Position numbers: made by a program. A stretch of 13,719 nucleotides of DNA from a virus (taxonomy: Duplodnaviria; Heunggongvirae; Uroviricota; Caudoviricetes): the IMG/VR virus record IMGVR_UViG_2850761752_000002; one strand, written 5' to 3'. Of the stretch, positions 3,001 through 9,000 are shown piece after piece (the first letter of the stretch is position 1; each line of letters starts with the position of its first letter).

Positions 3001-6000
3001 GAAAGCGGCACTGGCGCTCGGGCGTCGTGCAATTGGCGTTGAGCTGGAGACTGAACGTTTTGAGCAGACGGTTCGGGAAGTACAGGATTTAGTCAGCCAG
3101 AACGGATGATATTGAAGAATTAATTACGCGTCGTTATTATGCGGCTCCCGGCCCTTTAGCTCAGTGGTGAGAGCGAGCGACTCATAATCGCCAGGTCGCT
3201 GGTTCAAATCCAGCAAGGGCCACCATCACATACCGCCATTAGCTCATCAGGAAAGAGCGCCAGCCTTCGAAGCTGGCTGCGCGGGGTTCAAGTCCCCGAT
3301 GGCGGTCCATTATCTGCATCATGCGTTGTTAGCTCAGCCGGACAGAGCAATTGCCTTCTAAGCAATCGGTCACTGGTTCGAATCCAGTACAACGCGCCAC
3401 ACTTATTTTCCCTGGCTCGCTTTTGCGGGCTTTTTTTTTAAATGTCTCACAATTCAGACGGTTGACTGTTGTCTGGTTTGCGGGGAGTTTGTTAAAAGAA
3501 ACTGGCATGGTGAATCCCCCTGTGCGGAGGGGCAATCAGCGAGTAGGTATATGGGATAATCGCGGATTCAGGTGCTGGTACTGAATTCACCGGGAGGCAC
3601 CCGGCACCATGCAATGGCACATAGCGCCACTCTCCAGCCCCTCTCCGGAGGGGCTTTCTTGTGGGCAAAAAAAGCCCGCGCTGGGAGACGCGGGCGGCAA
3701 GGAATAAACAATAAAACGTGAAGTAATATTTCAGCTGGCGAATAATACCCCATAGTAGTCACTCTGCGCAACTGCGCGGTCTTTTTCGAATTGCGGGCTG
3801 TCGTCTCTCTTCTGCCATTGTCCTGTAACTTCCGGACTTCAGCCCGCTCCTCATTTTACTCACAATATTATCCCGGCCGGGAGGATTCATGGCTTTTAAA
3901 CACTATGATGTTGTCAGGGCGGCGTCGCCGTCAGATCTTGCGGAAAAGCTGACACATAAACTGAAAGAGGGCTGGCAGCCGTTTGGTAGTCCGGTGGCCA
4001 TAACCCCTTATACTCTGATGCAGGCGATTGCAGCAGAAGGTGCAGTAATCAGCGCCACCAGCGACCCGGAGTATTACTTTGTTGTGGTTCTGGCAGGGCA
4101 GTCAAACGGCATGTCGTATGGTGAAGGCCTTCCGCTGCCGGGGACATATGACCGTCCGGACCCGCGTATTAAGCAACTGGCGCGTCGCAGTACGGTGACA
4201 CCGGGCGGTGCAGCATGCAAATATAACGACATCATTCCGGCGGACCATTGTCTGCATGATGTGCAGGACATGAGCCGTCTTAACCATCCGAAAGCGGACC
4301 TGTCAAAGGGGCAGTACGGAACCGTGGGGCAGGGGCTGCATATCGCCAAAAAACTGCTGCCGTTTATACCGGCGAATGCGGGCATTCTGCTGGTTCCGTG
4401 CTGTCGTGGTGGTTCAGCGTTCACCACCGGAGCTGATGGCACATACAGTGACGCGAGTGGTGCCTCGGAGAATTCAACCCGCTGGGGTGTGGACAAGCCG
4501 CTGTATAAGGACCTTATCGGTCGAACAAAAGCGGCACTGGAGAAGAACCCGAAAAATGTGCTGTTTGCCGTGGTGTGGATGCAGGGGGAATTTGATTTTG
4601 GCGGTACGCCGGCAAATCATGCCGCACAGTTTGGTGCGCTGGTTGATAAATTCCGTGCAGACCTGGCGGATATGGCAGGCCAGTGCGTCGGTGGCTCTGC
4701 TGGCGGTGTTCCCTGGATATGCGGGGACACGACGTATTTCTGGAAGCAGAAGAACGAATCCACGTACCAGACGGTGTACGGCAGCTATAAAAATAAAACG
4801 GAAAAGAATATCCATTTCGTACCGTTCATGACCGATGAGAACGGGGTGAATGTGCCGACGAACAAACCGGAAGAAGACCCGGACATTCGGGGTATCGGTT
4901 ATTACGGTTCGAAATGGCGTGACAGCTCAGCCACCTGGACGTCACAGGACAGGGCGAGCCATTTCTAGACTGGCCCCCTGAATCTCCAGACAACCAGTAT
5001 CACTTAAATAAGTGATAGTCTTAATACTAGTTTTTAGACTAGTCATTGGAGTACAGATGATTGATGTCTTAGGGCCGGAGAAACGCAGACGGCGTACCAC
5101 ACAGGAAAAGATCGCAATTGTTCAGCAGAGCTTTGAACCGGGGATGACGGTCTCCCTCGTTGCCCGGCAACATGGTGTAGCAGCCAGCCAGTTATTTCTC
5201 TGGCGTAAGCAATACCAGGAAGGAAGTCTTACTGCTGTGGCCGCCGGAGAACAGGTTGTTCCTGCCTCTGAACTTGCTGCCGCCATGAAGCAGATTAAAG
5301 AACTCCTGAACCGCCCCGGGTTTCCTGGAGAGTGTTTTATCTGTGAACTCAGGCTGCCAGATCATCGTTTCCGATGGAAGCATAATAAGCTTTTTCTGCT
5401 TCTGCCGGAGGGATGTGGCCCAGCCTTTCCAGCAATCGTCGATTATTATACCAGTCCACCCACGTGAGTGTGGCCAGTTCCACTTCTGCACGGTTTTTCC
5501 AGCTCTTACGGTGTATTACCTCCGCTTTGTAAAGACCATTGATGCTCTCCGCCATCGCGTTGTCATACGAGTCGCCTGTACTTCCTGTTGATGCCAGTAA
5601 TCCGGCTTCCTTAAGCCGCTGTGTGTAGGCCAGCGATACATACTGAGAACCTTTATCACTGTGATGGACCGTGCCGGACGGTCGACGGGCCCATAACGCC
5701 TGCTCCAGAGCATCCAGCACGAATGTCGTTTCCATGGACGATGAGACCCGCCACCCCACGATGTATCCGGCAAACACATCAATAATGAACGCCACATAGA
5801 CGAAGCCCTGCCATGTGCTGACGTAAGTAAAATCAGCCACCCACAGCTGGTCAGGTCGTTCTGCCACGAACTGACGGTTTACGCGGTCGCCTGCGGCAAC
5901 GGCTTTCCGGCTGATGGTCGTACGGACCTTTTTACCCCGGAGAACACCGGCAAGTCCCATAACCGCCATGAGACGTGCCACAGTGCATCTGGCCACTCTG

Positions 6001-9000
6001 ATACCTTCCCGTAACAACTGACGCCAGACTTTACGCACACCGTATACCTGATGATTCCCATCGTATACGCGCAGTATCTCTTTCTTCAGCCAGTCATCGC
6101 GCTGCGCACGGGCACTGCGTTTATCAGGATGATGTCGCTGTTGCTGACAGTGGTAATACGTTGACGGGGCAATATGTAGTTCACTGCATACCGGTCCGAC
6201 CCCGTACAGCTTACGCAGCTTATCCAGCAGTGGCATCACTTTTTCCAGAGGCGGTCGAACTCCGCCTTCGCAAAATAAGCGGAAGCCTGGCGAAGGATAT
6301 CGTTACTGCGGCGCAGTTCACGATTTTCACGTTCCAGCTCTTTCAGACGCTGACGTTCAGCGGTGGTGAGCCCGCCATCACCGCCTCCGGTATCCCGCTC
6401 ATGCTGGCGTACCCAGACACGCAGAGTCTCCGGTGTACAGCCAATCTTTGGGGCAATGGAACAAATTGCCGCCCACTGTGAGTCATATTCGCCCTGACTT
6501 TCCAGAACCATACGAATCGCCCTCTGACGGACTTCGGGGGAAAAACGAGTATTTTTAGTCATCCTGTTTACCTCTTTCTCAGGGAGTTTAGTCTCCAGGA
6601 TTCCCGGGGCGGTTCACTGGCGAATAGCGGAATGGCCGGGTGAGGGTGGTGAAGGCCATCTGAGTTCTTTCTTTGTCCAGACAGATAAAGCCAGTATTAA
6701 TGTTGCATACCATCATACAGTTAATCAACAAAAAGAACTTGGCACGTTTGGCGCATTCGACCATGACTGGCATACGCTTGCATTTAAATTTAAGGGCAGT
6801 AACAGCATTAATGTTACTCCGGTGCTTGATGGTGTGGATGGACAGGCGTTTGACCTGGTGAAATGGGCCAATACTGCTAATGGACTCAACAGGTTTGTCA
6901 TTACGGATATTACAGGTAGTGCAGAAACCTACCCTGTACTTATTGATACGGTGGAAGTTAAAGCAAACAAAGCTGGAGCAGCCGCATAATTGCTAAAAAA
7001 AGCCGCCAGCGGCAGGAATGGAAGCTGGCGGAGGTAATCCCAATGGAGAATGTAAAGAAAAGATGCTTTCGTACATTGGTTTTTTAAATGAAAACAATTC
7101 TCATTGTCAACCATAACGGTAAGAAATTATGACATTTATTCATCAGGTGATGCTGTACTTCTGTACGGCGGTCTGTGTGCTGTATCTTCTTTCGGGTGGG
7201 TACAGGGCTGTGCGCGATTTCTGGTGCAGGCAGATTGATAAAAGGGCCGCTGAGAAAATCAGCGCCAGTCAGTCAGCCGGAAGCAAACCCGAAGAACCCG
7301 TTACTCCTTAACAACCCCTTTCAGCGAGAAAATCCCATGTCAGAAATCACATCCCTGGTCACTGCAGAGGCAGTGAAGGAAGTCCTGCGCTCTGAAGAAG
7401 TCCGGAGCGCACTGAAACAGAAACTTCGCCAGAATCTTGAGTCGCGTCTTGATGCAGAAGTGGATGCCATTCTGGATGAGCTGCTGGGCGTAGCAGCGGT
7501 TCCTGAGCCGGAAGGTATCGCGGGTGACGGGAGTGCTTCAGATGGCGGTGAACCTACACCTGACAGCGACATGATGATGTAAGCATGCGCAAGGGACCAT
7601 CGGTGTGTGCCGGTGGTCTTTATATTGTTGTGAGCTTCCGGATTGCGGGAGACGGGGTATGTACCAGATGGAAAAAATCACAACAGGTGTGTCATACACC
7701 ACGTCAGCGGTGGGAACGGGCTACTGGTTCCTGCAGTTGCTGGACAGGTTTTCCCCGTCTCAGTGGGCGGCAATAGGCGTGCTGGGGAGTCTGTTGTTTG
7801 GGCTGCTGACATATCTGACTAACCTGTATTTCAAAATCAGAGAGGACCGTCGTAAGGCGGCGCGGGGAGAGTAAAGCGATGAAGAAAAAATACGAACTGG
7901 TTGTTAAAGGGATAAATAATTACCCGAATAAGATTACTGTTACTGTGGCACTGGAAATTGGTGGGTATCCGTCACTGTTGTTGCCAGATGTGGCGATTAG
8001 TCTTGACCGTACTGAAGATGCCACGCTGGAGTTTTACGAAGCTGAGGCGAAAAAGCAGGCGAAGCAGTTTTTCATGGATGTTGCTGCCGGGTTATGTGAA
8101 GGGGATGGTCCGTTGCCGGAAAAGCGCCCCGTAATTTTAGAGGCGCAGGATGTGTTGATAACCTACAGAGGAAAACTACCGGGAATAATTACTGGTTCTC
8201 TGAAGACTCCACCGCTGGCCTGAAGACTTAACATATCCAGGGATTTGAAATCGATAAACCCTGATAAATATCCATGAACACCAAAATCAAATACGGCCTG
8301 TCGGCTGCCGTTCTGGCGCTGATTGCCGCAGGTGCGCCTGCGCCTGAAATCCTCGACCAGTTTCTGGATGAAAAGGAAGGTAACCACACCACGGCATACC
8401 GTGATGGCGCGGGTATCTGGACCATCTGCCGCGGTGCCATCCTGGTGGATAGTAAACCTGTCGTCCCGGGCATGAAGTTGTCGAAGGAAAAATGCGACCA
8501 GGTCAACGCCATTGAGCGTGATAAGGCGCTGGCATGGGTGGAGCGCAATATTAAAGTGCCGCTGACCGAACCCCAGAAAGCGGGTATCGCGTCATTTTGT
8601 CCCTATAACATTGGCCCCGGTAAGTGTTTCCCGTCGACGTTTTACAGACGGATTAATGCTGGTGACCGCAGGGGAGCATGCGAAGCGATTCGCTGGTGGA
8701 TTAAGGACGGTGGCAGAGACTGCCGTATCCGCTCAAATAATTGCTACGGTCAGGTATCCCGGCGAGACCAGGAAAGTGCGCTGGCGTGCTGGGACATCGA
8801 CAGATAAGCAGAATATTTTGCTGAAAATAAGGCATGAGCACGCGGACGGATAACACGAAATCCTGCGAACTGGCGAAACGTAAGTGAATAAAAGTAAAAA
8901 CCCCGTTTGTTGGCACCAGGCGGGGTTTTGTGTTTCTGACCTTGAGTAAGGCAAGGGAGAACATGGCGAAGTATAAACGAATTCTGTTGAGGTTGACCAT

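Follow-up and report, generated by a model that had tools for sequence, protein, structure and literature searches.

A nanS-p-type esterase pseudogene split by IS2 and IS629 in a prophage remnant of Shigella boydii

The subject of this study is a 13,719-base stretch of DNA (hereafter, the window) from IMG/VR virus record IMGVR_UViG_2850761752_000002, in which an esterase gene of the nanS-p family lies in two pieces on either side of a block of insertion sequence (IS) DNA. These pieces very probably derive from a single allele of about 636 codons, similar to that of Escherichia coli ML35, which was destroyed by three IS events, namely the insertion of IS2, the insertion of IS629, and a deletion. 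A first-pass annotation had put these events in the order IS2 into the esterase gene, IS629 into IS2, and finally a deletion that removed the rest of IS2 and the middle of the gene. The three pieces of that reading and both losses are borne out by the alignments described below; the order of events is unproven.

Two collinear pieces of one esterase gene

The 5' piece of the nanS-p-type sialate O-acetylesterase gene occupies positions 3889-4965 on the plus strand, where its 359 codons correspond to codons 1-374 of the ML35 gene, whose product has 636 amino acids (aa); in the list of open reading frames (ORFs), it appears with its stop codon as the 359-aa ORF 3889-4968. Pfam places DUF1737 (PF08410) at aa 3-50 (57.8 bits) and SASA (PF03629) at aa 66-260 (45.2 bits), and the product aligns from aa 56 to its very last residue, aa 359, with the NanS structure of PDB entry 3pt5 (E 2e-108). 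All four SGNH blocks are retained, from the serine block 'GQSNG' at about aa 70-74, which aligns with 3pt5, to block IV, 'RASH', which likewise aligns with it and ends at aa 358; the ORF stops one residue past the histidine of this block. Rangarajan et al., in 2011, are said to have named Ser19 and His301 as the catalytic residues. We take the GQSNG serine and the RASH histidine to be this catalytic pair, and both positions agree with an offset of 11 tag residues in the 3pt5 chain. 'RASH' is an instance of the 'RASH/RSSH' motif described for block IV of NanS-p (PMC10462455), and since it ends at aa 358, IS2 begins one codon beyond the catalytic histidine. The 359-aa ORF holds the greater part of the SGNH/SASA catalytic domain, and what is gone from this domain are the last ~19 conserved residues: the segment following the truncation, SSWARRGIISDRLATAILS, is lost here and is strongly conserved even in chromosomal NanS, which reads SSAARRGIISDRFVEAILQ. 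The linker is gone as well, and so is the proximal ~43% of the lectin domain.

The ORF owes its stop codon to the mobile element, as the first-pass annotation had recognized, since the TAG at 4966-4968 is formed by the first three bases of IS2 (nucleotides (nt) 1-3). The IS2 stump (4966-5306, plus strand) consists of nt 1-341 of 1331, that is, the left inverted repeat and insA codons 1-83, in agreement with the earlier estimate that IS2 is cut after about 340 bp. In a blastn comparison with IS2A of K-12 (1331 bp, beginning TAGACTGG), the stump matched over 341 bp with 3 mismatches (99.1%), and the window gave no further IS2 match in this comparison. The right end of IS2 and the 5-bp target duplication are absent, and the stump is a remnant rather than a functional copy.

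Directly adjoining the stump is an IS629-type element (5307-6616, minus strand, 1310 bp), whose completeness had also been noted in the first pass. It has both terminal inverted repeats, which begin TGAACCGCCCCGGG, and carries orfA (6236-6562, minus strand, 108 aa), orfB (5349-6239, minus strand, 296 aa), and an ALIL frameshift pseudoknot (6165-6281, 116 bits); HTH_Tnp_1 and rve (DDE transposase) domains were detected. A simple IS629 insertion leaves a target-site duplication of 3-4 bp. This copy is flanked by TCC and CTG, and hence by no duplication, with IS2 nt 341 on one side and gene nt 1539 on the other. Given these mismatched flanks, one of the two must be secondary, and a deletion at one end of the element is required. 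By sequence, the element is a member of IS629, and the missing duplication marks a later rearrangement.

A second IS629 copy in the window (12452-13719, plus strand, cut by the window end) provides an internal control for an undisturbed insertion in this lineage. It lies within an IS66-family transposase gene, is accompanied by a 3-bp duplication, AAC, and has a matching empty site in two of the fetched loci (L003 and L006). The copy is present in Sb227, CP026731, and others and absent from L003 and L006, and it is therefore a recent, strain-variable insertion. Only 1 base separates the two copies in the window. The IS629 of prophage Sp5 of O157:H7 Sakai (L015:3295-4604) differs from the first copy at 55 of 1310 positions (95.8% identity), and Shigella and O157 Sakai therefore carry distinct subtypes of the IS629/IS1203 group.

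On the far side of IS629, the 3' piece of the esterase gene (6617-6989, plus strand) corresponds to ML35 gene nt 1539-1911, which comprise the last base of codon 513, codons 514-636, and the stop codon. The fragment had been taken to start at 6618, and in fact begins one base earlier, at 6617, with the third base of a codon. As the first-pass annotation had described, its frame holds 123 sense codons (6618-6986) followed by TAA (6987-6989) and has no start codon at its head: there is no ATG, GTG, or TTG before 6822. Upstream, the frame remains open to 6528, within IS629, which explains the variously sized 'DUF6645' gene calls found in assemblies (121-169 aa).

That this fragment is the C-terminus of the esterase, as had been surmised, is shown by its identity at 373 of 373 positions to the 3'-terminal 373 nt of the ML35 gene for the 636-aa SASA esterase. 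The same gene end in phage phiSTEC1589-Stx1c is 99.3% identical, and the longer stretch 6617-7130 matches that phage at 99.4%, under its 636-aa 'SASA family carbohydrate esterase'. In addition, 6618-6986 matches DUF6645 (PF20350) with 88 bits (6.4e-25), at profile positions 41-116 only; the distal ~57% of this lectin-like domain is thus present. In the ML35 protein, residues 426-630 align to PDB entry 6yp6, the solved C-terminal lectin-like, jelly-roll domain of NanS-p. The fragment does not belong to an unrelated gene, and full-length relatives measure 636-657 aa (see also PMC10462455) rather than 359 aa.

With the full-length ML35 gene as the reference for both pieces (fragment-to-gene alignment, in 100-nt bins), the 5' piece falls on gene nt 1-1122, and nt 1539-1911 are covered by the 3' piece. 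The two are collinear, a point that the first-pass annotation had put up for checking, and between them 416 bp are missing (nt 1123-1538, codons 375-513). Between about nt 400 and nt 1122, the 5' piece can be told from ML35 at about 2 of 731 positions, the successive bins for nt 401-1122 scoring 100, 100, 99, 100, 100, 100, 99, and 31/31. Taken with the 373/373 match on the other side, these scores assign the sequence on either side of the IS block to a single ML35-like allele that has lost an internal part. The matches to known elements throughout this structure are near exact over hundreds to thousands of bases, and chance is therefore no consideration. The gene order is also normal for a prophage, running from transfer RNA (tRNA) genes through nanS-p, DUF1378, DUF826, and holin to lysozyme.

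The gene is accordingly split by 1651 bp of IS DNA and is short of 416 bp, and no single ORF of about 636-657 aa is present. Joined together, the two pieces would give 1450 nt in frame +1 with immediate stops, which means that excision of the IS DNA cannot restore the gene. Judged from its sequence, then, the locus is a pseudogene of the nanS-p family and not a functional member.

Order of the insertions and the deletion

The identity, extent, and collinearity of all four pieces, the loss of 416 bp, and the lack of a duplication can be read directly from the alignments; the order of the IS629 insertion and the deletion, and the biochemical route of the latter, we infer from the finished structure. 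In the first step, IS2 would have inserted after gene nt 1122, its terminal TAG closing the ORF at 359 aa. IS629 would then have inserted nearby, the favoured site being in IS2 after nt 341. Finally, a deletion of ~1.4 kb would have extended from the exact orfA-adjacent end of IS629 (window position 6616), removing IS2 nt 342-1331 and gene nt 1123-1538 and joining the intact IS629 terminus to gene nt 1539. Such a deletion may have come about by transposase-mediated strand transfer, either one-ended or intramolecular, or perhaps by end-joining after transposase cleavage.

This order, with IS629 entering IS2 before a rightward deletion, is plausible and slightly favoured, because a deletion in S. 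boydii 4444-74 also lies at the orfA-proximal end of an IS629. In that strain (AKNB01000197.1, L011:4190-4215), the IS2 stump is shorter, ending at nt 226/227, and runs straight into the orfA-proximal terminus of the second IS629 copy. The deletion covers window positions 5192-12451 (~7.3 kb) and takes with it the first IS629 copy, the esterase 3' fragment, the lysis genes, and part of the IS66-family element. It is a second, independent event, from which it follows that terminus-precise, IS629-adjacent deletions occur in this locus; as a single case on a draft contig, the junction is weak evidence on the order of events. Deletions associated with IS629 are known from E. coli O157, where they range from a few nucleotides to >40 kb (PMC9943667, citing Kusumoto 2011 and Ooka 2009).

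Several points weigh against the reconstruction. The order of events rests on parsimony and on one analogy, that of 4444-74. The right side of IS2 is gone, and with it any view of the target duplication of the element, and the place where nanS meets IS2 might have arisen by deletion instead of marking the original insertion. Nor was any intermediate found, whether a complete IS2 at nt 1122, an IS629 with IS2 on both sides, or an IS629 with the gene on both sides. A search with the whole region recovered the structure in none of 5426 complete E. coli genomes (the output was dominated by IS copies), and both the nanS|IS2 and the IS629|nanS junctions were absent from the same genomes. Similarly, the nanS|IS2 junction was not found in GTDB species representatives or JGI metagenomes, the predicted right junction of a complete IS2 was not found in GTDB representatives, and metagenomes did not contain the left junction that a simple IS629 insertion at nt 1538 would have produced. 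As the searched collections hold few or no Shigella genomes, these absences are weak evidence.

Among the other histories that would lead to the same structure, the strongest has IS2 at nt 1122 and IS629 inserted independently in the gene at nt 1538/1539, followed by a leftward deletion from window position 5307 that removed gene nt 1123-1538 and IS2 nt 342-1331. We regard this course as quite possible, though we lean against it. It involves an equal number of events (three), and no duplication is kept on either side of the first IS629 copy to mark the original flank. Moreover, IS629 enters the C-terminal region of nanS-p elsewhere and in the same orientation, as in Sakai Sp5, where it lies after gene nt 1669 with the duplication AAAG (PMC10462455). 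Set against this are the sole independent deletion in this locus, that of 4444-74, which begins at the orfA-proximal terminus, the one adjoining the gene fragment in the window, and is a single weak case, and the finding that an IS629 at nt 1538/1539 occurs in no genome among the complete E. coli genomes and metagenomes.

Alternatively, an IS629 in IS2 may have recombined homologously with another, directly oriented to it, in the gene, with loss of the DNA between them and a single hybrid copy as the product. This would likewise yield a complete IS629 with mismatched flanks and no duplication, and IS629 is multi-copy in the lineage, with two copies in the window alone. The scheme is nevertheless unlikely, for it calls for four events instead of three, including two independent IS629 insertions within 1.4 kb, and no strain has two copies at this place. 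An inversion between the oppositely oriented IS629 copies was also considered and is excluded: L003 and L006, which are without the second copy, share the nanS/IS2/IS629 structure, and the second copy has its own duplication and empty site.

A further suggestion would be that the pieces come from the nanS-p genes of two prophages, brought together by recombination between IS copies. Several prophages with nanS-p are often found in one E. coli or Shigella genome (PMC8065619), and the two sides do differ in their overall similarity to ML35, with 95.9% for the whole 5' piece and 99.4-100% on the 3' side. The lower identity, however, is limited to the first ~390 nt (DUF1737 and the linker), which are BP-4795-like, and is followed by about 2 differences in 731 positions and then by none in 373. 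The best phage matches of the 5' piece are genes of the BP-4795 type (~97%), whose C-termini are quite different (50-66% DNA identity), and domain shuffling and mosaicism of nanS-p have already been described (PMC10462455). With the pieces also collinear, co-oriented, and in normal prophage order, an origin from two genes is highly improbable. Hardly credible at all is a naturally short esterase of 359 aa followed by an unrelated frame: chromosomal NanS (326 aa; 337 residues in the 3pt5 chain) does lack the C-terminal lectin domain, but the stop codon here belongs to IS2, the ORF is without the 19-residue segment kept even in chromosomal NanS, relatives are 636-657 aa long, and the 3' end of the esterase gene matches the downstream frame at 100% identity.

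The locus in Shigella boydii and its prophage

All 13,719 bases of the window are identical (100%) to the chromosome CP026731.1 and to UAUO01000008.1, and the window is 99.9% identical to CP000036.1 of S. boydii Sb227. An exact-protein look-up placed the 359-aa product in Shigella boydii and found it on at least 24 NCBI contigs. CP000036 stands for strain Sb227 of S. boydii, and the accession prefixes AKNB and AFGC for its strains 4444-74 and 3594-74 (PMC4374849). The nanS|IS2 junction was identical in 10 of 10 fetched loci and the IS629|nanS junction in all 8 of the loci that span it (it is deleted in L011, and L012 ends inside IS629), so that the structure is fixed in this lineage. Since the junctions are shared and the second IS629 copy is variable, the nested block predates the diversification of these strains. 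Elsewhere, in many E. coli genomes (e.g., NZ_CP005930.1, 85262-86078), the first 341 bp of IS2 share a strand with a match of 105-114 bp to an IS629 end, at a distance of a few hundred bases, which hints at other nested or adjacent arrangements of IS2 and IS629-type elements.

The surrounding locus is a heavily decayed lambdoid prophage remnant of ~14.6 kb. Before it, Pfam matches indicate lolCDE-like genes, a ROK kinase, SIR2, a periplasmic binding protein, and a permease; after it come a permease, an ABC ATPase with TOBE, an M20 peptidase, and PhoQ/PhoP. By comparison with the gene order of K-12, the remnant sits between potC and potB. It begins with an integrase gene (1-1107, minus strand) and a 768-bp IS1 (1324-2091). 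The IS1 is flanked by a 5'-truncated xis-like ORF next to the integrase and by a 5'-truncated N6/N4 DNA methylase gene (window 1076-3109), the latter itself lying in two ORFs, 2078-2365 and 2522-3109. It seems that an IS1-associated deletion took out the whole early region of the prophage, with Q and the late promoter.

Three tRNA genes, Met(CAT), Arg(TCG), and Arg(TCT), follow at 3150-3399, together with a strong match to the small RNA STnc100 at 3476-3666 (Rfam, 139 bits); these features (3150-3666) fill the slot that stxAB occupies in Shiga toxin (Stx) phages. The rest of the remnant comprises the esterase locus, DUF1378, DUF826, holin, DUF1327, lysozyme, Rz, a TonB_C lipoprotein, and the IS66-family element with the second IS629. 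The small lipoprotein-like ORF with a TonB_C domain (10264-10605) is situated past the lysis genes in the late region, at roughly the place of bor in lambda, and is followed on the opposite strand by a DUF3950 ORF. No stx, Q, head, or tail genes are present in the prophage remnant.

The junction of the two elements has also created a chimeric ORF (5057-5467, plus strand), made up of InsA codons 1-83 of IS2 and 53 codons that run antisense through the IS629 end. It is called as a 136-aa HTH_Tnp_1 gene in several assemblies, and its HTH domain is intact. The ORF is probably a meaningless by-product of the junction, and could in principle bind IS2 ends. One might speculate that the chimeric InsA' ORF represses other IS2 copies in trans, or that the 359-aa product is a working O-acetylesterase, free of its lectin domain, that S. 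boydii has kept. Such roles, which would be predictions from sequence, seem decidedly unlikely to us, given that the Q/pR' late-transcription control region has been deleted and that the catalytic fold lacks its conserved 19-residue C-terminal segment. How well the strains agree says nothing about function, as the whole locus is 99.9-100% identical.

Comparison with known systems

NanS-p proteins are prophage cargo that lets lysogens use 9-O-acetylated sialic acid (PMC8065619), and a 2026 preprint describes the homologue in phi24B as a capsid-decorating protein that is processed and has DUF1737 as its anchor. Loss of an esterase acting on mucin sialic acid, as predicted here from the state of the gene, would fit the reductive evolution of Shigella, of which IS-driven gene decay is a hallmark (e.g., PMC3218036). 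The case is routine decay of this kind and already known in its parts, with a pseudogene of a known family, known elements, known processes, and published genomes. Its significance beyond bookkeeping is small. Nonetheless, the two halves of one pseudogene explain the 359-aa 'SASA esterase' and the 121-169 aa 'DUF6645' gene calls and should be annotated as such, and the junctions, being fixed, could be used to mark this lineage of S. boydii. The locus also offers a fully resolved example of the dismantling of prophage cargo genes by IS elements in Shigella, with a replicate of the IS629-adjacent deletion in a sister strain.

Like the NanS-p genes of Stx and lambdoid phages (933W Z1466/p42, phi24B vb_24B_21/gp84, and BP-4795 YjhS), the gene described here has a three-domain plan of DUF1737, SGNH/SASA, and the lectin-like DUF6645, shows 'GQSNG' and 'RASH' among its SGNH blocks, and is placed between a tRNA cluster (the stx site in Stx phages) and holin. 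It is 96-100% identical to the NanS-p alleles of E. coli ML35, O104:H4-type genomes, and phage phiSTEC1589-Stx1c, and is a mosaic in which DUF1737 and the linker are BP-4795-like and the catalytic and C-terminal parts ML35-like. Unlike those genes, it is a two-piece pseudogene without codons 375-513, in a prophage that lacks stx, Q, and head genes.

A catalogue of IS3-family and IS66-family insertions within or close to nanS-p exists for Stx2a phages (PMC10462455). The nearest parallel is the O157:H7 Sakai prophage Sp5 ('CTR3' variant, Pascal et al. 2023, PMC10462455), in which an element of the IS629/IS1203 type lies in the same orientation in the C-terminal domain region of nanS-p. In Sp5, the element simply inserted after gene nt 1669, leaving a 4-bp duplication (AAAG) and causing no gene loss, whereas in the S. 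boydii locus there is no duplication, IS629 stands against an IS2 stump, and 416 bp of the gene are deleted. With the IS-driven decay of Shigella and O157 genomes at large (PMC9943667, PMC3218036), the locus shares multi-copy IS1, IS2, IS629, and IS66-family elements, nested insertions, terminus-precise deletions by an intact IS, and polymorphism among strains. From that pattern it differs in nothing of substance, and is a typical instance of it.

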